Source: Candidatus Nomurabacteria bacterium (GTDB lineage: Bacteria; Patescibacteriota; Minisyncoccia; Phycocordibacterales; UBA9973). Taken from it: DNA of 64,000 nucleotides. Below the pieces are notes generated by a model that saw nothing but the letters and a program-made list of their open reading frames with translations, ran no database searches and was not told the DNA's origin. This document shows, piece by piece, positions 3,156 through 63,414 of this stretch. Location of the stretch: positions 201,159 to 265,158 of the forward strand of contig JAIOPO010000001.1 of assembly GCA_021413905.1 (NCBI GenBank). The letters run 5' to 3'. Both the position numbers and the translations under genes were made by a program. How positions within the stretch are numbered: the first letter of the stretch is position 1; every line of letters begins with the position of its first letter.

Positions 3156-5087
3156 ATGAAAATAGTCACCGTAATACCACTAGCAAAGGGCGCTTTTAAA
3201 GAAGATTTGACGTATTTTACAGCTCATGAAATACCAAATGGCAATATAGTCAGCATACCAATTCGTAATAAAAACATACTAGGATTAGTGGTATCTTCCG
3301 AGGAAGTTACTGGAGCAAAAGGAGACATTAAAAACATGTCCTTTAATTTAAAAAAAATTACCGAGACAAAAGAGCAATCAGTTTTCAAAAAAGAATTTTT
3401 GGAATCCGCATTTGAAGTCAGCGATTATTTCGCTTGCAGAAAAAATAATCTTATCACGCATTTATTGCCGTCTGCATTTCAAAATGATTATGATAAAATT
3501 TCTAAAATCAACATCACTCCTGACTTATCCTCTGAAATACGAGGAACAGAATTAAAATCAGAAAAATTACTTTTTCAAAATTCTTTTACAGATAGAATTT
3601 CTTTTTATAAAACAATGATTCGTGAATCTTTTGCTCAAAAAAAATCAATATATATAGTTTTGCCTACAGAAAATGATATAAATAATTTTAATATTTTATT
3701 AAGCAAAGGTGTGGAGAATTTTACCTTTTCTATTCATGGAGGATTGAGTGTAAAAAAACAAATAGAATTATTTAAACAAATAACAATGTCTGAGCATCCA
3801 GTACTTGTTTTAGGAACTGCTCCGTATTTATGCATACCAAGAAATGATTTCGAAACAATAATATTGGAACATGAAAATTCAAATACTTATAAAACAATGA
3901 ATAGGCCTAGTTTAGATCTGAGAATTTTTGTCGAATTATTTGCGGTAAAAACAAAAGCTAAATTTATTTTAGCTGATACTGTATTGCGTTTTGAAAGTAT
4001 TGCTCGTAAAAAAGACAATGATATTGAAGAAATTCGCCCTTTATCATTTATAATGAATAATAATAATGCTGAAATTGTAACTATTTTAAGAGAAAAAAAC
4101 ATGAAATTTACAATATTCTCTGAAGATATTTTAAAAGAAATAAAACAAAATATAGACAAAAAACAAAATGTTTTCATATTTGCATTAAGAAAAGGACTTG
4201 CCACAGAGACTATTTGTAGAGATTGTAATCAATCGATAAATTGTGAAAAATGTCATTCCCCTGTAGTGCTTTATTTATCCAAAGATGGTACAAAAAGAAG
4301 ATTTGCTTGCAATAGATGTAATACTGAAAAAAATCCAGAAATGCTTTGTCCTAGATGTGGAAGCTGGAATTTGATACCTCTTGGTATAGGCACAGACACT
4401 GTTTCAGAAGAATTAAAAAATATTTTTCCGGATATAAAAATTTTTAAATTGGATAAAGAATCGATAAAAAATACAAAAGAAGCAGAAGAAATGATTCAGG
4501 ATTTTGAAAATATGCATGGAGCAATATTAATAGGCACAGAAATGGCTTTTTTCTATTTACAAAAACCAGTCACTTTTTCAGTGGTCGCTTCTTTTGATTC
4601 ACTTTGGAGTATACCGAATTTCCGAATGAGTGAGAAAATAATACAAATCATAATTTCTTTAATTCTTTTTACAAAAGACAAATTAATAATACAAACAAAA
4701 AATGAAAATGATTCTTCTATTATTGCTCTTAGAAATGAAAACCTTCATTCATTTGTTAGAGAAGAAATTGAAATTAGAAAAAATCTAGGATATCCGCCAT
4801 TTAAAAAATTTATAAAAGTAACACATTTCGGCCAAAAAGAAGAAGTCGCTCATGTTAAAAAATATCTATTAGAAATTTTCAAAGAATATGAACCGGAAAT
4901 TTTTAGTGGTTTTGTATCAAAATTAAAAGATAAATATGTAACAAATATGCTTATTAAACTTGATCCAAAAAATTGGTCTTTACCTGAACTTCACCCTGAC
5001 TCGAAATTAAATAAAAACCTCCTCACCAAGCTCCTCTCCCTCCCGCCATCATTTTCTGTATCAGTTGACCCAGAAGATTTGTTGTAA
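3156..5087 (+). CDS. priA: Primosomal protein N' (PriA)-like protein with an intact Cys-rich zinc-binding region but degenerate helicase motifs I/II
   Basis: The Cys cluster CRDCNQSINCEKCHSPVVLYL...FACNRCNTEKNPEMLCPRCGSWNLIPLGIGTDTVSEEL..FPDIKI matches the PriA pattern CxxC..CxxC..H..CHxCG..PxxCPxCGS..GxGTE. The downstream ILIGTEMAFFYLQ resembles PriA ILIGTQM. At the Walker A position the sequence is LPTENDINNF instead of GSGKT, and the DEEH box reads LEHENS. Confidence 0.65.
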   Translation: MKIVTVIPLAKGAFKEDLTYFTAHEIPNGNIVSIPIRNKNILGLVVSSEEVTGAKGDIKNMSFNLKKITETKEQSVFKKEFLESAFEVSDYFACRKNNLITHLLPSAFQNDYDKISKINITPDLSSEIRGTELKSEKLLFQNSFTDRISFYKTMIRESFAQKKSIYIVLPTENDINNFNILLSKGVENFTFSIHGGLSVKKQIELFKQITMSEHPVLVLGTAPYLCIPRNDFETIILEHENSNTYKTMNRPSLDLRIFVELFAVKTKAKFILADTVLRFESIARKKDNDIEEIRPLSFIMNNNNAEIVTILREKNMKFTIFSEDILKEIKQNIDKKQNVFIFALRKGLATETICRDCNQSINCEKCHSPVVLYLSKDGTKRRFACNRCNTEKNPEMLCPRCGSWNLIPLGIGTDTVSEELKNIFPDIKIFKLDKESIKNTKEAEEMIQDFENMHGAILIGTEMAFFYLQKPVTFSVVASFDSLWSIPNFRMSEKIIQIIISLILFTKDKLIIQTKNENDSSIIALRNENLHSFVREEIEIRKNLGYPPFKKFIKVTHFGQKEEVAHVKKYLLEIFKEYEPEIFSGFVSKLKDKYVTNMLIKLDPKNWSLPELHPDSKLNKNLLTKLLSLPPSFSVSVDPEDLL

Positions 5088-5088
5088 A

Positions 5089-5766
5089 TTAATTAGAAAC
5101 CAACACAGTAAACTCCCCTTTTTGTTTGACGGGATTTTTTGTGAAATATTCCAAAAGTTCGGCGGGTTTGCCTGTTTTAAATTCTTCAAAAATTTTAGTG
5201 ATTTCGCGAGCAACACAAACTTTTTTGTCTGGGCAGAATTTTGCTAAAGATTCCAAAGTTTTTAAAATGCGATGCGAAGATTCGTAAAAAATCATCGTGC
5301 GTTCTGCATTTGCAATTTCTTTAAATAAAGTCTCTCTGCCTTTTTTGTGTGGAAGAAAACCAAGAAATGTGAATTCGTGCGTGGGCAAGCCTGACGCAGA
5401 AAGTGCAGAAATGATGGCTGATGCACCCGGAATAGGTATGACTTGCACGTCATCATTAAACTTTTCTTTAATCTGAGAAATAAGCAATGCGCCCGGGTCT
5501 GAGATGGTCGGCGTGCCGGCATCAGAAACCAATGCAATATTTTTACCTTCTTCTAGGAGTGCAAAAATCTTGTCTGTCTTTGTTAATTTACTCTGAGCAT
5601 GAAAACTCATTGTAGAATTTTTTATTTCATATTTATTTAAAAGTTTTTGCGTGGTTCTTGTATCTTCACATAAAATTAAATCCACCTCACCTAAAATACG
5701 AATCGCTCGTAAAGTTATATCTTCCATATTACCTATCGGTGTAGCTATAACGTAAAATTTAACCAT
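5089..5766 (-). CDS. rsmI: 16S rRNA (cytidine1402-2'-O)-methyltransferase RsmI
   Basis: The N-terminus is YVIATPIGNMEDITLRAIRILGEVDLILCEDTRTTQKLL. The tetrapyrrole-methylase fold motifs LVSDAGTPTISDPG and FLGFLP are typical of RsmI. The product is 225 aa. Confidence 0.85.
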   Translation of the reverse strand: MVKFYVIATPIGNMEDITLRAIRILGEVDLILCEDTRTTQKLLNKYEIKNSTMSFHAQSKLTKTDKIFALLEEGKNIALVSDAGTPTISDPGALLISQIKEKFNDDVQVIPIPGASAIISALSASGLPTHEFTFLGFLPHKKGRETLFKEIANAERTMIFYESSHRILKTLESLAKFCPDKKVCVAREITKIFEEFKTGKPAELLEYFTKNPVKQKGEFTVLVSN

Positions 5767-11006: not shown

Positions 11007-11456
11007 TTATTTATTCTTTTCTGCCAAAACTTTTTCTGTAGCTTGCAACACAAGTCCAGCTACTTCATTTTTAACTTCACCTAACATTTTAACTCTCTCG
11101 GCTTCTATAATCTTCTTGCCATTTTCTATTGTTTCAATCATTTCTTTTTGAGCTTGCTCAAGTATTTCAGCTTTTTTCTTTTCAGCTTCTTTTTTATTTT
11201 TATCAAAAATTTCATTTGCTTCGATGCGAGCTTTTGCAATAGCTTTTTCATATTCTTCTGTTGTAGCTTTCAATAAATCTGCATTTGTCTTAGCATCATC
11301 AATGCCTTTTTCTATTTTTGTAGATCTTTCTTGCATTAATTTATGCAAAGGTTTGATAGCAAAATAAAACAAAACAGCAAAAACAATACCAAAGTTTAAT
11401 GCTTGGGCAATGACTATTTTCCAATCTATATGAAATGTTGTAATTATTGAATCCAT
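11007..11456 (-). CDS. atpF: Fo ATP synthase subunit b
   Basis: There is one N-terminal TM helix followed by a long charged helix (KIEKGIDDAKTNADLLKATTEEYEKAIAKARIEA...). The product is 149 aa. Confidence 0.8.
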   Translation of the reverse strand: MDSIITTFHIDWKIVIAQALNFGIVFAVLFYFAIKPLHKLMQERSTKIEKGIDDAKTNADLLKATTEEYEKAIAKARIEANEIFDKNKKEAEKKKAEILEQAQKEMIETIENGKKIIEAERVKMLGEVKNEVAGLVLQATEKVLAEKNK

Positions 11457-11535
11457 GTTAAATAAAAATTATTATAAATAATATCCTGAAAGCGATGCCA
11501 ATATTTCTGTAAATACGGCACCGAAATTCAAAATA

Positions 11536-11784
<249 letters not shown>

Positions 11785-11794
11785 TTATTATTAA

Positions 11795-12685
11795 TTATGC
11801 ATGAGCGTGACCGCGCTCATTGCTTTCATCATGTTCTTCATGATCTTGTGAAGCTATACTAAAATATACCAACACCAAGATCGCAAAGATAAAAGCCTGA
11901 ATAAGTCCCACGAAAACTTCCAAGAAAAGAAAAGGGACAGGTAAACCATATGCGAGAATAGCACTCATCGCAAGCAATAAAACTTCTCCAGCAAATACAT
12001 TTCCGAATAGACGAAAAGAAAGCGAAGCGACTTTTGCGAATTCTCCTATTAATTCCAAAATACCAACAAAGAACGTTATCGGCCCGACTATGACTACTGA
12101 TTTATCTTTACGGAATTTCGTAGCGACACTGCCAAGCGCTTTAATATTAACATACTTATTGAAAGTTTTCCAAATACCGATAGATAAAATTCCAAAAATA
12201 TTTGCTCCGATAACTGATATGACAGACATTGCTAAAGTGGTATTTACATCTGCTGTACCACTACGAATAAAAGGTATGAAAGATTTACCATGTTCGCCGA
12301 TTTCAATCAAACCGAAACCACCCAAAGGTAATATACCAAGCCAATTATTTATTAAAACAAAAAAGAATATCGCAAAAGCAAGAGGAAATAATTTCAAAGT
12401 TAATTTTCTACTGCCTGTCACCTGATCACACAAAGAAAAAGCTCCATCTAAAATCATTTCAAAAAAATTCTGAAAACCTTTTGGTCTTTCACAAAGTTTT
12501 CTGTTTAAAATAAAAACAACAGAAACAATAATCAAAACAGCAATCCAGGAAGTAAGCAAAGCATTTGTAATCGGAAAATTACCAATATGTCCTATTGGTT
12601 CAGCATATATAGTTGCTTCATGAGAAATTTCTCCATGATCTGCATTTATTGTATTCTCAATATTTGTATTTTTAGTCTCTTCCAT
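11795..12685 (-). CDS. atpB: Fo ATP synthase subunit a
   Basis: The sequence contains LSFRLFGNVFAGEVLLL with the conserved Arg. The start was chosen at the ATG at 12685 (MEETKNT...) to minimise overlap with the upstream gene; the ORF-track start is 12733. There is an unusual C-terminal tail, SQDHEEHDESNERGHAHA. Confidence 0.8.
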   Translation of the reverse strand: MEETKNTNIENTINADHGEISHEATIYAEPIGHIGNFPITNALLTSWIAVLIIVSVVFILNRKLCERPKGFQNFFEMILDGAFSLCDQVTGSRKLTLKLFPLAFAIFFFVLINNWLGILPLGGFGLIEIGEHGKSFIPFIRSGTADVNTTLAMSVISVIGANIFGILSIGIWKTFNKYVNIKALGSVATKFRKDKSVVIVGPITFFVGILELIGEFAKVASLSFRLFGNVFAGEVLLLAMSAILAYGLPVPFLFLEVFVGLIQAFIFAILVLVYFSIASQDHEEHDESNERGHAHA

Positions 12686-29261: not shown

Positions 29262-29333
29262 GGCTCTATCGTCTAACGGTTAGGACGGGTCCTTCTCAAG
29301 GATCAAATCAGAGTTCGATTCTCTGTAGAGTCA
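29262..29333 (+). tRNA. tRNA-Glu (anticodon CUC)
   Basis: The sequence is GGCTCTATCGTCTAACGGTTAGGACGGGTCCTTCTCAAGGATCAAATCAGAGTTCGATTCTCTGTAGAGTCA. The acceptor stem is GGCTCTA/TAGAGTC, the D-arm is Glu-like (TCGTCTAACGGTTAGGAC), the anticodon loop is TTCTCAA and the T-arm is CAGAG-TTCGATT-CTCTG. CCA is not encoded. Confidence 0.85.
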
Positions 29334-30079
29334 CATTTCGAAACTGCCTCGGCAGAAAGCGCAAAATCTTGGCGCGCCGAAGGCGCGCTGTATGGAGAGA
29401 GCAGGAATTCTGCATTGCGGGCGCGGGCGAATTCGGTGGGCGGGCAAAATGAGACAGAGACGGACTTGTCCCGCAATTGCGAGTTCGTTCCAATTTTTTT
29501 GAAATAGTCACGAATTTCAAAAAAATTATCGCTAGATTGCAATTGCGTGGCTTTTTTCATATCCAAAATCCATTCCCGCAAGGGTTCGACCCAATTCTTT
29601 TTCTCTGCTCGGGCGGAGTCCATTTTTTGAGCGAGAGAGACTTTTTGTTTCAAAAGCTCATTTTTCTTCAAAATATAATTTTCTTTCGGTATATCGCCGT
29701 CTAAATACAAACTCACTAACTCATCGAGCTTTTGTTCTGTCTCTCGCTCATTTTCCTTAATCCGCCCGAGCATACTTCCCGACGAGGATTTTTCACTTTT
29801 GTCCCATTCCTCAACTTTTCGTAACATAAAATCTGTCCACTCGTCGAGAAGTGCGATTTGTTGAAGCCGTTCTTTTAATTGCAAGACGACTACATCTTCT
29901 CGCAAATATTTTTGGTCACAATTTCCTTTCTTTTTCGTACAGCGATAATAGCGATATCGAACGCCCATTTTTCCTGTCGTCCATTGAGCAGTTATCATAC
30001 TGTCACATTCTCCACAACGAAAAAGTCCAGTGAAAGGAAAATTGTGACTTTTCTTTGATTTGCGAGGATGAATACGCAA
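29303..30079 (-). pseudogene. Truncated large serine recombinase (zinc-ribbon and coiled-coil C-terminal half only); remnant of an integrated element next to tRNA-Glu
   Basis: The frame starts directly with the recombinase zinc-ribbon motif FPFTGLFRCGECDSMITAQ...YRYYRCTKKKGNC. The catalytic resolvase domain is absent and murJ lies immediately upstream. The 3' end reads through the unusually GC-rich patch 29340-29470 into the tRNA gene. Confidence 0.65.
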
Positions 30080-31821: not shown

Positions 31822-34638
31822 TTAAACTATTATATTCAAAAGTTTATTTTTTACATAAACTACCCTTTTTATTTCTTTGCCTTCTAGATGTTTCAAAATT
31901 GCTTCATTCTTTAAAGCTTTTTGTTTTATTTCTTCTTCTGTTTCTTCTATATTTATCAAAATTTCTGCACGCACTTTGCTATTTACCTGCAAAGCAATAG
32001 TTATTTCATCATCTTTCGTCAAAGCTTCGTCGTATTTCGGCCATAGGGAAAGATGTATGCTTTCTTTTTCGCCAAGATCCGCCCAAAGTTCTTCTGTTGT
32101 ATGTGGGGCAAAAGGAGCCAATAATTGCAAAAGAGTTTTATAAATTTCTTCTGAGATTTTTTCTTGTTTATCTAAACCATTTAAAAGAATCATCATTTTT
32201 GAAATACAAGTATTGTATTTATGTTCTTTGATATCTTGGTCTATGCCTTTGATTGTTTTGTGTAATAAATTACTTTGTTCTGTAAAATTTTTATCAATTT
32301 TTTCTTGCAATTTCCAAACTCGCTCCAAAAATCTACGCACACCGACGACGCCATTTGGATCCCAAGGATAGTTTACCGTCACTCCATACGGACCCATAAA
32401 TGCCAAATACAAACGCACTGTGTCTGCGCCAAGTCTTTCCACTATTTCATCAGGGTCTATCACATTGCCTTTTGATTTGGACATTTTATTTCCATCCGGA
32501 CCTAAAATAAGTCCCCTGTTGCGACGCATTGTGTAAGCCTCAGAATCTTTTACCAAACCTAAATCAAACAAAGCCTTTACCCAAAAACGAGAATAAAGTA
32601 AATGCATCGTAGTGTGCTCCGCCCCGCCCATATATAAATCCACCGGCATCCAAGAATTTATTTTTTCTTTATCTGCAAATTCTGTATCATTATTATTGTC
32701 CAAGTATCTGTAAAAATACCAAGAAGAATCTACAAATGTATCCATCGTTTCCACTTCCGGTTTCCATCCTTTTCCAAATATTTTTTCTGTTCTTTCTAGG
32801 AGTTCCTTGCTTCGTGCCAATGGTGCTGTGCCATCGGGCTTATAATCCACATCAGTCGGCAAAAGCCAAGGCAAGTGTTCGTCCGGCACCGGATGCGCCT
32901 TGCCTTCAATATCGTAAACTATCGGTATCGGCACACCCCAATATCTCTGCCGAGAAATCCCCCAGTCGCGTAGTCTATAAGTATTCACCAATTTCCCACC
33001 GACAAATTCTGTGATTTTTTTACGAGCTTCTTCGGAAGCTAAGCCATTAAATTTGGAAGAATTTATAAGTTCTCCATTTCCATCATAAAATAAATCTTTA
33101 CTTGCTAAGTATTTTTCTAAAATTTTTGCCTGACATAAATTATCTACTTTTTTAAAATTTTTAATGGCTTCATGAATATCCACCCAAATTAATTTTGCTT
33201 CTTTTGTATTTTCTTTAATTTGAGTAATATCAATATTCACCACATAAGCATGATGAAGCATTGTTCTAAAACATTTCCTTCTTTCAGAATACCAACTTGA
33301 TCTTAAGGTTTGAATCTTTTTAAATTTAGTGATATCTATATTTAAACCGACTTCTTCTCTGACTTCTCTTATTAAAGCATCTTCTGGTGTTTCACCTTCT
33401 TCGATACCACCTCCAACTAAAACATAATTTCCTCCAAACTTTGTCTGGTTTTCATTAGTTTCATCACATAAAACTTTTCCATTATTTTCAATAATAGCAC
33501 ATACCCTATTCCTTTCTATTGCATCTTTATTTCTATCTCCGACTATTTCTGCAATAACTTCTTTTATTGGCAAATTATATTTCTTTGCAAATTCAAAATC
33601 CCTTTCATCGTGGGCTGGCACTGCCATCACTGCTCCTGTGCCATAGCCTGCTAAAACATAATCCGCAATCCATACCGGCACTTCTTCATTATTCGCCGGG
33701 TTAATAGCTTTTATGCCTTTTAATTCAACTCCTGTTTTTTCTTTGGACTGCTGTCGGTCAAGTTCAGATTTCTTTTTTGTATCAGAAATATATTTTTCTA
33801 CTTCATTCCAATTTTCAATTTTATCTTTTAATTTTGAAATCAATTCATGTTCCGGCGCAAGTACTACATAAGTCACGCCAAACAAAGTATCCGCGCGAGT
33901 GGTAAATACTTTTATCTTTTCTTCAACATTTTTTATTCCAAATTCAATCTCACTCCCTTCACTCCTTCCTATCCAATTCTTCTGTGCGGATTTTATTTCG
34001 TGAGGCCAATCAAGCGTATCAAGATCGTCAATCAATCTGTCCGCATATTTTGAAATACGAAGCATCCATTGCTCTTGATCTCTTTGTTCCACTTCCGCTC
34101 CACAACGCTCGCATTTACCATCCACTACTTGCTCATTGGCAAGTATAGTCATATCTTTTGGACACCAATTTACTTTTGTAACATCGCGATATGCCAAATC
34201 ATTTTTCAAAAATTGATTAAACATCCATTGCGTCCATTTGTAATATTTCGGATCACAAGTCACCACCTCTCTGTCCCAATCAAAAGACGCGCCCATAGAA
34301 CGGAGCTGCAAGCGCATTTTATCCATATGTTCATAAGTCCAAATTTTTGGATCTGCGCCGAGTTTTATAGCTGCATTTTCTGCAGGCAAACCAAAAGCAT
34401 CAAAGCCCATCGGATACAAAACATTATACCCGCTCATTCTTTTATATCGCGCAAAAATATCCGGCACAGAAAAAGCATACCAGTGTCCCACGTGCAGATT
34501 GCCCGAAGGATAAGTGAATTCCACAAGTTGATAAAAATTTTCTTTACCTTTTACTGTATCATCTACCTTGTAAAGTTTATTCTTCTCCCATTCCTCCTGC
34601 CATTTTTTTTCAATTATTTTATGATCGTAATTTTTCAT
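31822..34638 (-). CDS. leuS: Leucyl-tRNA synthetase with an inserted Nudix-hydrolase-like domain
   Basis: The HIGH-type motif is HVGHWY, the CP1 editing domain is present (TTRADTLFGVTYVVLAPEH), and KMSKS and LRDWGISRQRYWG are present. An extra segment of about 150 aa (nt 33075-33550) carries a perfect Nudix box, GGGIEEGETPEDALIREVREEVGL. The product is 938 aa. Confidence 0.93.
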   Translation of the reverse strand: MKNYDHKIIEKKWQEEWEKNKLYKVDDTVKGKENFYQLVEFTYPSGNLHVGHWYAFSVPDIFARYKRMSGYNVLYPMGFDAFGLPAENAAIKLGADPKIWTYEHMDKMRLQLRSMGASFDWDREVVTCDPKYYKWTQWMFNQFLKNDLAYRDVTKVNWCPKDMTILANEQVVDGKCERCGAEVEQRDQEQWMLRISKYADRLIDDLDTLDWPHEIKSAQKNWIGRSEGSEIEFGIKNVEEKIKVFTTRADTLFGVTYVVLAPEHELISKLKDKIENWNEVEKYISDTKKKSELDRQQSKEKTGVELKGIKAINPANNEEVPVWIADYVLAGYGTGAVMAVPAHDERDFEFAKKYNLPIKEVIAEIVGDRNKDAIERNRVCAIIENNGKVLCDETNENQTKFGGNYVLVGGGIEEGETPEDALIREVREEVGLNIDITKFKKIQTLRSSWYSERRKCFRTMLHHAYVVNIDITQIKENTKEAKLIWVDIHEAIKNFKKVDNLCQAKILEKYLASKDLFYDGNGELINSSKFNGLASEEARKKITEFVGGKLVNTYRLRDWGISRQRYWGVPIPIVYDIEGKAHPVPDEHLPWLLPTDVDYKPDGTAPLARSKELLERTEKIFGKGWKPEVETMDTFVDSSWYFYRYLDNNNDTEFADKEKINSWMPVDLYMGGAEHTTMHLLYSRFWVKALFDLGLVKDSEAYTMRRNRGLILGPDGNKMSKSKGNVIDPDEIVERLGADTVRLYLAFMGPYGVTVNYPWDPNGVVGVRRFLERVWKLQEKIDKNFTEQSNLLHKTIKGIDQDIKEHKYNTCISKMMILLNGLDKQEKISEEIYKTLLQLLAPFAPHTTEELWADLGEKESIHLSLWPKYDEALTKDDEITIALQVNSKVRAEILINIEETEEEIKQKALKNEAILKHLEGKEIKRVVYVKNKLLNIIV

Positions 34639-61971: not shown

Positions 61972-63414
61972 TCATTTTAGCATTAAAATCTTATATTTTA
62001 AATTACTAATAATTCTCTTAATCTCCTCTTCCTTTCCTAAAATCCTCTCGACCAATTCTTTCGACCCGAATTCTTCTTCTACCTCAGCACCCTTTGGATT
62101 CTTGAAATCCAAATTAAAATTCTTTGCACGAATATCCGCGATTGAAACCTTCCATGCATTATCACTCGCTTTTTTATTTTTAAACCATTTTATTACTGGT
62201 TCAAACTCCGCATCGGTGATACCTCTATTCTTCGTATATTGTTTCAACCCCGCAGGCAATGGCATCTGATAATACCAAACTTCTTTTGTTGGTTGGCCTT
62301 TTGTAAAAAATACAAGATTCGTATTTACCCCAGCATACGGCTGAAAAACACCTGCTGGCAAGCGGACAATGGTATGTACATTACATTCCTCAAGAAGCTT
62401 TTCTTTAATACGAGATTTTACACCTTCGCCAAAAAGAGAACCATCAGGTAAAACTATTCCACATTTTCCACCAGGCTTCAAAAGACTCATAAATAATACA
62501 AGGAAAAGATCTGCAGTTTCTTTTGTGCGAAAATCCGCAGGAAAATTTGCCTCTGTGCCGTCTTTGACACTTCCACCGAAAGGAGGATTGGCAATAATAA
62601 TATCTACACGATCTTTTGGACCATAATCACGAAGTGGAGTAGAAAGCATATCACCACGACGAATTTGCTGAGGAATTTCTACGCCGTGCAAAATCATATT
62701 GGTAATAGCAAGCAAATGCGGAAGCGGTTTTAATTCTACTCCACGAATTTGTTGTTGAACTTTAGTTTCATCTTTTTTTGTTTTTACTTCTCCACTACTT
62801 CTGACATACTCAAGTGCACTAATAAGGAATCCTCCAGTACCACATGCAGGGTCAAGAATACTTTCACCTAATTTTGGATCAAGAGTACTGACAATAAAAT
62901 TCGTAAGTGGTCTCGGTGTATAGTACTCACCAGCATTACCTGCATTTTGAAGTCCTTTCAATAAATGTTCATAAATTTCGTTGAAATGATGACGATCGTC
63001 TTTACTATTGAAATCTATTTCATTTATTTTATTTACCACTTGACGAATGAGAGTACCAGACTTCATGTAGTTGTAAGTATCTTCAAAAACTTCTTTAACA
63101 ATAAGACCTCTAGGATCATCATTTTCATTGAATTTCAAACTCTTGAGTTGTTTAAATAGCTTATTGTTTATAAAATCAAGCATTTCGTCACCAGTAATCC
63201 CCTCGGCATTACTAGCCCAATTACGCCAGCGAAGAACTTCAGGAATCGGAGAATGATACTTGAGATCAAGAAGTTCATACTCTTTTTCTTTATCATCAAA
63301 AATCTTCAAAAATAAAAGCCACACGAGCTGTGAAAGTCGCTGTGCGTCGCCGTCTACCCCAGCGTCTTTACGCATGATATCTTGAATATTTTTTATGATT
63401 GATTGAATGGCCAT
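61972..63414 (-). CDS. hsdM: Type I restriction-modification DNA methyltransferase subunit HsdM (N6-adenine)
   Basis: The HsdM N-domain is QRLSQLVWLLFLKIFDD, the AdoMet motif I is LDPACGTGGFL and the catalytic motif IV is IIANPPFGG. The product is 480 aa. Confidence 0.92.
   Translation of the reverse strand: MAIQSIIKNIQDIMRKDAGVDGDAQRLSQLVWLLFLKIFDDKEKEYELLDLKYHSPIPEVLRWRNWASNAEGITGDEMLDFINNKLFKQLKSLKFNENDDPRGLIVKEVFEDTYNYMKSGTLIRQVVNKINEIDFNSKDDRHHFNEIYEHLLKGLQNAGNAGEYYTPRPLTNFIVSTLDPKLGESILDPACGTGGFLISALEYVRSSGEVKTKKDETKVQQQIRGVELKPLPHLLAITNMILHGVEIPQQIRRGDMLSTPLRDYGPKDRVDIIIANPPFGGSVKDGTEANFPADFRTKETADLFLVLFMSLLKPGGKCGIVLPDGSLFGEGVKSRIKEKLLEECNVHTIVRLPAGVFQPYAGVNTNLVFFTKGQPTKEVWYYQMPLPAGLKQYTKNRGITDAEFEPVIKWFKNKKASDNAWKVSIADIRAKNFNLDFKNPKGAEVEEEFGSKELVERILGKEEEIKRIISNLKYKILMLK
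62018..62052. repeat. 36-bp direct repeat, copy B (native hsdM 3' end)
   Basis: ttaatctcctcttcctttcctaaaatcctctcgacc lies in the last codons of hsdM. Confidence 0.8.

Follow-up and report, generated by a model that had tools for sequence, protein, structure and literature searches.

A putative Nudix hydrolase domain nested in the leucyl-tRNA synthetase editing domain of Nomurabacteria and relatives, and its exchange between near-identical strains

Bacterial aminoacyl-tRNA synthetases are usually regarded as architecturally fixed, and the leucyl-tRNA synthetase (LeuRS) gene of one Candidatus Nomurabacteria genome raises the question of how far this holds. The gene, leuS, lies within the window, by which we mean the whole 64,000-nucleotide stretch of DNA that we analyzed (contig JAIOPO010000001.1 of assembly GCA_021413905.1, positions 201,159 to 265,158). 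An earlier note on the window, made from its letters and translated reading frames, had proposed that this 938-residue LeuRS carries an inserted Nudix-hydrolase-like domain and that the extra domain might add a proofreading or alarmone-control activity. Is there a Nudix domain at this place, is it shared by related genomes, and does it take part in the work of the synthetase?

The nested domain and its host

The leuS gene is a single uninterrupted open reading frame (ORF), and its 938-residue product is identical in sequence to an NCBI protein of 'Candidatus Nomurabacteria bacterium' (P0001; numbers beginning with P refer to proteins and those beginning with L to loci). In an NCBIfam scan the protein scored 959 bits against the bacterial LeuRS model TIGR00396 (leuS_bact, cut-off 548), with the match broken into two stretches. 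The class I motifs are present (HVGH at residues 49-52, KMSKS at residues 718-722), and an AlphaFold2 model of the whole protein (mean predicted local distance difference test score, pLDDT, of 88.4, with nothing below 50, insert included) superposed on E. coli LeuRS-tRNA complexes with template modelling (TM) scores of 0.84-0.85, normalised to the target. Across 81 sequences the editing residues T246, T247, R248, T251 and G254 are invariant, in relatives with and without the insert alike, and so are D344, R346 and D347 and the columns from L556 to G568. The LeuRS body retains the HIGH, KMSKS and editing motifs and the overall fold. The leucine-specific domain is lacking from the window LeuRS, with no counterpart in the alignment to T. 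thermophilus residues ~580-637.

When aligned to the solved structure of T. thermophilus LeuRS, residues 368-517 fall between Thermus residues 367 and 376, inside the editing domain, which bears out the insertion of about 150 residues that the earlier note had described. The span it had given, 33075-33550, corresponds to residues 363-520 (33079-33552), and the Nudix domain lies just after the VPAHDERDFEFA helix. The insertion point, which we call site A, is in the C-terminal part of CP1, ~20 residues past the PAHDERDFEFA helix, and is occupied by 1-40 residues in relatives that lack the insert, or cassette. In the Pfam scan the editing-domain model PF13603 is interrupted near profile position 150 of 185 by NUDIX (PF00293), which matches with 60.6 bits (E 2.1e-16, cut-off 21.1). 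The box GGIEEGETPEDALIREVREEVGL fits the pattern GX5EX7REUXEEXGU exactly, as had been claimed for it.

Structure prediction agrees with the family match. The cassette modelled alone reached a pLDDT of 89, and a Foldseek search of the PDB with this model returned Nudix hydrolases only (probability 1.0, TM up to 0.77, normalised to the target), the top neighbours being 2azw (an Enterococcus MutT/nudix protein), NudI/YfaO, NudG/ORF135, an Aquifex diadenosine tetraphosphate (Ap4A) hydrolase, MutT and RppH. The earlier note had also raised the prospect of an ordinary LeuRS insertion lacking the Nudix fold; in the AlphaFold2 model the Nudix fold takes up almost the whole 158-residue insert. By sequence, the closest solved structure is NudI (3n77, E 1.4e-10), and in PHROGs the cassette matches phrog_1198, MutT/NUDIX, with 80 bits. 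On this evidence the cassette is predicted to fold as an independent domain, and the insert as a whole reads as a complete MutT/NudI-type Nudix domain, in frame in a CP1 surface loop and putatively competent for catalysis. The architecture is one of double nesting, with the domain lying in CP1, which is itself inserted in the Rossmann fold.

Two groups of known relatives frame this assignment. The small single-domain NTP pyrophosphohydrolases of E. coli and Salmonella, NudI/YfaO, NudG/ORF135 and MutT, resemble the window cassette in fold, in having the full GX5EX7REUXEEXGU box and in size (~130-150 residues), but they are free-standing, whereas the cassette is nested in LeuRS and scores below every equivalog cut-off. 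Among LeuRS insertions, CP1 (PF13603) and others are likewise surface insertions in a class I synthetase, here an otherwise canonical bacterial LeuRS; canonical CP1 is only the inserted module, whereas here it hosts a further domain that is an unrelated enzyme and not an RNA-binding or editing extension.

The base composition of the cassette (GC 0.285, third-position GC, or GC3, 0.14) is lower than that of the rest of leuS (0.37 and 0.32), where most 50-codon core blocks have a GC3 of 0.3-0.5. We considered this as a sign of foreign origin and dropped it, as 28% of equal-size segments in the window are as low. The cassette GC3 is like the genome background, and the LeuRS core resembles ATP synthase and other genes of high conservation.

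Distribution and conservation

The same insertion recurs in related genomes. Among the 120 closest LeuRS proteins, drawn from a collection of 5.8 billion sequences, 75 have at least 100 residues at site A, and PF00293 is found in most of the 75; the named insert-bearing relatives belong to Nomurabacteria, Paceibacterota or the Patescibacteria group. When GTDB species genomes were scanned with LeuRS patterns specific to the clade, 478 relatives emerged, and all of the best 80, in a ranking that favours insert-bearing genes, have a Nudix-homologous cassette at site A (strict box in 55 of the 80). The labels of these best 80 are Nomura-, Kaiser-, Giovannoni- and Adlerbacteria, Paceibacter, Parcubacteria or more generic. 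For a sample independent of the cassette we searched metagenomes with residues 150-362 only; Nudix was present in 17 of the 74 LeuRS loci listed (23%) and other large inserts in 3 of the 74, the remainder having short linkers. All of these frequencies rest on listings of best matches.

Two other searches were of no use for this purpose. Against 1.84 billion representatives of 50%-identity clusters the cassette gave only 18 matches below 1e-10, and was uninformative on distribution, the representatives of LeuRS clusters being mostly insert-free; a profile of 36 diverse cassettes returned only free-standing Nudix proteins of ~145 residues and none embedded in LeuRS, and could not be used for counting. 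A scan of viral contigs found no viral relatives.

In the table of the 120 closest proteins, every insert-bearing LeuRS with an NCBI name is called 'class I tRNA ligase family protein', while the named insert-free relatives are mostly 'leucine--tRNA ligase' (exceptions P0098 and P0117). The nested domain appears to downgrade the automatic annotation of LeuRS.

The cassettes are far more diverse than their hosts, with mutual identities of 24-29% on average as against ~73-75% for the LeuRS cores. This low mean identity reflects many old subtypes rather than decay; 150 unique cassettes form 36 clusters at 45% identity. For 142 of the 150 the best-matching sequence is a LeuRS cassette of another subtype and not any free Nudix protein that we retrieved, a sequence pattern which suggests that the LeuRS cassettes form a common pool. 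The window subtype (P0001, P0002, P0013) is an exception, and could be a separate capture.

What is conserved across this diversity is the Nudix box. In an alignment of the 36 diverse cassettes only G48, E63 and E67 are invariant, and only E54, R62 and E66 are kept in at least 90%; these columns correspond to the box residues G410, E416, R424, E425, E428 and E429 of the window protein. The box glutamates, whose conservation in orthologues the earlier note had left as a point to be settled, are therefore kept, and the motif 'GEREEEG' is retained in 55 of the 75 site-A inserts of at least 100 residues. In 25 pairs of the same subtype, the nonsynonymous divergence (dN) of the cassette is 0.04-0.37 and the synonymous divergence (dS) is saturated or above 1.4; with dS saturated in all 25 the ratio of the two is unusable, and we took from these pairs only the bound of a low dN against a saturated dS. 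Compared with the core, the cassette has the lower dN in some pairs (0.037 against 0.108 for L010/L054) and the higher in others. Judging by these alignments, the predicted metal-binding and catalytic residues E416, R424, E425, E428 and E429 are under purifying selection.

Cassette exchange, other inserts and surroundings

Over 2775 pairs, the identity of the LeuRS core and that of the cassette are uncorrelated (Spearman 0.02), and pairs with cores 96-97% identical can differ wholly at site A. Where P0004 has a cassette homologous to Nudix but degenerate in its box, P0019, with a near-identical core, has a 34-residue linker; P0012 has Nudix where P0096 has four residues; and among P0008, P0048 and P0088, again with near-identical cores, site A holds Nudix, an unrelated 119-residue domain and one residue, respectively.

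The same contrast is seen in the DNA. Loci L001 and L002 are syntenic; over most of 14.8 kb they are 100% identical, except for a few diverged tracts, one of which spans the cassette of L001 and the 34-residue linker of L002, the latter belonging to a complete 808-kb genome (CP064958.1). Loci L083 and L084, with an intact-box Nudix domain and an unrelated 119-residue domain, are 100% identical for ~3.4 kb up to the region coding for PAHDERDFEFA, then 51-61% identical over the cassette, and later 84-99%. In such strain pairs the protein identity is complete as far as the GTGAVMAVPAHDERDFEFA motif, then collapses, and recovers from about YRLRDWGISRQRYWGVPIP. Assembly chimeras are unlikely, since each variant is found on several contigs. 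The divergence does not reach beyond the cassette and the sequence directly beside it, a pattern left by homologous recombination with the conserved LeuRS segments on either side as anchors. Because 100%-identical flanks occur with Nudix, with a 34-residue linker or with an unrelated domain, the module is dispensable for LeuRS function.

Our evidence for exchange rests on near-identical backbones with differing cassettes. One candidate of the opposite kind, P0012 and P0116 (cassettes 94% identical, cores 76%), was dropped as a cassette transfer when sliding windows showed the cassette to be as conserved as the best core segments. A neighbour-joining tree of the LeuRS cores with Fitch parsimony gave 29 state changes, which is a hint only, as the tree is star-like (core identity 0.73 +/- 0.03).

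Like inteins and homing elements, the cassette sits in frame where an essential gene is conserved, is patchily distributed and can be present in one strain and absent from a close relative. Inteins have a Hint domain and splice junctions, whereas the cassette brings its own conserved enzymatic motif; a Pfam scan of the LeuRS down to E 0.1 found no Hint or intein family, and signatures of splice junctions and of transposases are missing as well. Unlike inteins, the cassette evidently stays in the mature protein, and its exchange looks like ordinary homologous recombination.

Outside leuS, too, L001 and L002, and likewise L083 and L084, are 100% identical in most 150-nucleotide windows, with several short tracts of 83-97% (in L001, for example, diverged tracts at 3751-4050, 4351-4650, 4951-5250 and 11101-12150). 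These populations appear to recombine often.

Nudix is one of several kinds of domain found in CP1 among the relatives. Site A of P0094 holds a domain like aminoglycoside nucleotidyltransferases (NTase-like). Further non-Nudix cassettes at site A (P0048, P0062 and P0099, ~115 residues; P0041 and P0061, ~132 residues; P0103; P0068; loci L084, L098, L108 and L126) had no match in Pfam, PADLOC or PHROGs, and by sequence comparison would represent at least two conserved families of unknown fold that substitute for Nudix in near-identical LeuRS. At a second point, site B, which is empty in the window LeuRS, 14 relatives have inserts of 43-149 residues that map to query residues 235-243. Relatives in which this hot spot is occupied include P0011, P0018, P0031, P0046, P0052, P0059, P0075, P0094, P0102 and P0267. 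The contents of the site-B inserts are DUF559 or restriction endonuclease (REase) domains resembling Vsr, ASCH, Ser_hydrolase/alpha-beta-hydrolase, Ham1 (ITPase) or NUDIX. Further insert points lie at residue ~271 and, adjoining site A, at residues 524-528, and a HAD domain is likewise among the inserts in the same or adjacent CP1 loops. The 1376-residue LeuRS P0102 combines Ham1, NUDIX and HAD, and the LeuRS fragments P0242 and P0269 contain three Nudix stretches. The nearest relatives of the cassette outside LeuRS, P0129 (450 residues), P0137 (652 residues) and P0122 (403 residues), include a Nudix-Nudix-GrpE fusion and proteins with three to four tandem Nudix domains. Nudix, ITPase, HAD and ASCH domains have in common a chemistry of nucleotide or nucleoside clean-up, and the inserts in the relatives may share this theme.

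This turnover could mean that the cassette is a passenger of little or no benefit, tolerated by an essential gene at a permissive loop: a selfish or neutral insertion, in frame and non-splicing, or else, in some lineages, a structural appendage without catalysis. Loss and replacement are indeed frequent, roughly one cassette in four or five has a degenerate box, the GC3 of the cassette is that of the background, unlike that of the core, and endonuclease-like domains occur at site B. Against this reading, the catalytic residues are the sole invariant columns over very deep divergence, dN is low with dS saturated and sometimes falls under the value for the LeuRS core, the signatures of inteins and transposases are missing, and the box in the window is perfect. 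We consider a mere passenger quite improbable.

Turnover could also be driven by conflict, if the cassettes were resistance modules that shield LeuRS or the cell from nucleotide-like toxins, antibiotics that mimic adenylates or effectors of phages and were renewed by diversifying or frequency-dependent selection. The replacement by unrelated domains at strain level, the 36 cassette clusters, the NTase-like cassette of P0094 and the Vsr/REase-like domain at site B are consistent with this, as is the best PADLOC match of the window cassette, the candidate single-gene defence Nudix PDC-S07 (55 bits, E 1.1e-15). The PADLOC score is, however, no better than that of the generic Pfam NUDIX model; the neighbours of leuS are housekeeping genes, with no defence island; selection within subtypes is purifying and not positive; the viral-contig scan returned no relatives; and the recombination tracts scattered across the same loci imply that exchange need not be driven by selection. 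A role in conflict thus seems to us a poor prospect.

The coordinates of leuS, of its parts and of other features of the window are collected in Table 1. The immediate neighbourhood of leuS consists of murJ, a DUF5671 gene, tsaC and ychF, and the remaining genes of the window are also housekeeping (ATP synthase, GatB, PriA-like, TsaC, YchF and MurJ), apart from three features. A giant ORF with a Laminin_G_3 (concanavalin-like) domain and numerous GLUG motifs probably encodes a very large protein of the cell surface or for adhesion, of the type found in the candidate phyla radiation (CPR). A short ORF adjoining murJ, with only the Zn-ribbon of a serine recombinase, looks like the truncated remnant of an integrated element; GC is 0.43-0.45 locally, against 0.33 for the window. 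A type I restriction-modification methylase gene lies near the window end.

Table 1. Positions of leuS, its motifs and inserted domain, and other features of the window (residue numbers are those of the 938-residue LeuRS)
Feature	Coordinates	Strand	Basis
leuS, 938-residue LeuRS with nested Nudix cassette	31822..34638	-	ORF list, TIGR00396, AlphaFold2 superposition, HVGH/KMSKS
Site-B hairpin loop, residues 235-243, empty here, before the Thr-rich editing motif	33910..33936	-	inserts mapped from relatives
Thr-rich editing motif FTTRADTLFG, residues 245-254, intact	33877..33906	-	invariant columns
Conserved motif GTGAVMAVPAHDERDFEFA, residues 333-351, with the editing-site Asp residues; left homology anchor	33586..33642	-	invariant D344/R346/D347; strain-pair identity
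Site-A cassette, residues 363-520 (158 residues), entire insertion relative to canonical LeuRS	33079..33552	-	alignment
Nudix hydrolase domain, residues 378-495 (Pfam envelope)	33154..33507	-	PF00293; AlphaFold2 fold at residues ~374-512
Nudix box GGIEEGETPEDALIREVREEVGL, residues 410-432, on a predicted loop-helix (helix 418-430)	33343..33411	-	sequence reading
Conserved segment YRLRDWGISRQRYWGVPIP, residues 554-572, CP1 exit; right homology anchor	32923..32979	-	invariant L556-G568; strain-pair identity
Region lacking the leucine-specific domain, residues ~714-718	32473..32500		alignment
Serine recombinase Zn-ribbon ORF, 258 residues, TTG start	29303..30079	-	
Giant GLUG/Laminin_G_3 ORF, 5509 residues	39211..55740	-	
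Type I restriction-modification methylase gene (HsdM)	61972..63414	-	

Possible functions and significance

The earlier note had suggested that the Nudix domain could hydrolyze Leu-AMP, Ap4A or mischarged adenylates, as an extra proofreading or alarmone-control activity. Acting on Leu-AMP or non-cognate adenylates, it would add a step of pre-transfer proofreading. The placement of the domain within the editing domain is the one observation in favour of such proofreading. Nudix enzymes cut the pyrophosphate bonds of nucleoside-diphosphate-X compounds, whereas aminoacyl-adenylates are acyl-phosphate anhydrides, which are hydrolyzed by enzymes of the HIT family and not by Nudix. The canonical editing site is intact, and invariant whatever the cassette; the flanks are 100% identical with or without Nudix; unrelated domains (ITPase, HAD, hydrolase, ASCH and endonuclease-like) are found in the same and neighbouring loops; and Nudix also occurs fused to GrpE. 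Proofreading of Leu-AMP is unlikely both on chemical grounds, as there is no suitable pyrophosphate linkage, and because LeuRS can do without the module or have unrelated domains in its place, and we regard it as very improbable.

We favour instead an autonomous hydrolase of the nucleotide house-cleaning or dinucleoside polyphosphate (ApnA) type, carried on LeuRS and exchanged by homologous recombination, a reading that we judge about evenly poised between right and wrong. The Nudix domain would act alone, as a Mg2+-dependent pyrophosphohydrolase on a nucleoside-diphosphate-X compound, and would stand outside the chemistry of aminoacylation and editing. The likeliest substrates would be non-canonical or excess ribo- or deoxyribonucleoside triphosphates, (d)NTPs, or dinucleoside polyphosphates; a (d)NTP-type substrate is proposed because the window subtype is nearest to NudI, NudG and MutT in NCBIfam scores and in the sequence search of the PDB. 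In a very small genome, LeuRS might serve merely as a carrier that is abundant and constitutively expressed, with cassettes swapped by homologous recombination between the conserved LeuRS motifs that flank site A.

An alternative would couple the Nudix domain to LeuRS in cis. It could degrade Ap4A, Ap3A or kindred by-products of the reaction of ATP with Leu-AMP bound to the enzyme, or act like RppH, as a pyrophosphohydrolase or in decapping, at the 5' end of an RNA held by the synthetase, and would so link translation to the control of alarmones or RNA ends. The RppH/NudH and ApnA hydrolases, including the Aquifex Ap4A hydrolase aq_158, share the Nudix fold and are among the top structural neighbours, and Nudix recurs at site A of LeuRS in many Paceibacteria/Parcubacteria-type lineages. 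Across the 36 diverse cassettes RppH models were matched by 33 (best E 2.8e-9) and NudE by 22, more than MutT or NudI, although all of these family scores fall far under the cut-offs and the window subtype differs in favouring NudI and MutT (27.9 bits against a cut-off of 118 for RppH, NF001936). Most cassettes have an aromatic pair, F/Y449 and Y/F450, ~17-18 residues past the box, Y450 lying 18 after L432. ApnA hydrolases presumably have a marker tyrosine ~16-18 residues after the box, to which Y450 might correspond; as aromatics are nonspecific at this place, we treat the resemblance as a lead and not a test. Coupling in cis is also hard to square with near-identical strains that lack the cassette or have non-Nudix substitutes, and with the occurrence of Nudix at site B and in fusion with GrpE. 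LeuRS is not known as a major producer of Ap4A. Overall we think such coupling unlikely, though a serious rival.

Several observations weigh against an autonomous house-cleaning hydrolase as well. The window cassette does not reach the equivalog cut-offs of the families that it most resembles (52 bits against 95 for NudI, NF012016; 46 against 156 for NudG, NF007834; 43 against 98 for MutT, TIGR00586), and most other cassette subtypes lean weakly to RppH/ApnA-type models. Nudix persists at the same LeuRS loop across a whole class, which is an argument against an arbitrary location. No near-identical strain of the window organism turned up in the metagenome scan, and dispensability is thus drawn from other subtypes. 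The altered boxes counted above also stand against it, among them those of one subfamily (L031, L059, L032, L035, L042, L053, P0004 of locus L001, and P0060) with the pattern GGIEEGQTPEEAA-[LI]AE/ME-..-[EQ]E. Here arginine is replaced by A or M and glutamate by glutamine, yet dN is low with dS saturated. From its sequences this subfamily is probably a pseudo-enzyme with a retained role, and its constraint suggests a role independent of catalysis; none of the explanations offered here covers it fully.

A broader and rather improbable idea is that CP1 of the Paceibacteria LeuRS is a display platform for horizontally exchanged, strain-variable enzyme cassettes that act in cis on ligands of the synthetase (Ap4A-type alarmones, adenylate-mimic toxins or RNA ends), with turnover reflecting selection. 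If true, Nudix, ITPase, HAD, alpha/beta-hydrolase, ASCH, Vsr-like nuclease, NTase-like domains and unknown folds would make up an accessory genome inside an essential gene.

Our searches of the full-text literature turned up no account of a LeuRS with a Nudix domain. A bacterial class I synthetase with an extra enzyme domain is not without precedent, as the NCBIfam entry NF040702 ('ileS_w_GNAT') is a curated model of an IleRS with an N-acetyltransferase, although both the synthetase and the domain are different. A 2026 survey of domain insertions described PF13603 as insertion-exclusive, with 0 of 213 events as host (PMC13114784), and the Nudix domain nested in CP1 contradicts this generalisation. 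The exchange of cassettes at strain level inside an essential gene is an unusual and well-supported property.

In these LeuRS proteins CP1 hosts a second enzyme. This enzyme keeps its predicted catalytic residues in many Paceibacteria/Parcubacteria-type (CPR) lineages and is nonetheless polymorphic among strains with identical flanking DNA. A practical consequence is that insert-bearing LeuRS proteins receive a generic class I ligase name at NCBI. With one LeuRS backbone found with Nudix, with other domains or with a short linker, the family offers a natural test system, in which crosstalk between a nested domain and its synthetase, the permissiveness of CP1 loops (of use in engineering) and the packaging of nucleotide house-cleaning in ultra-small genomes could be probed.

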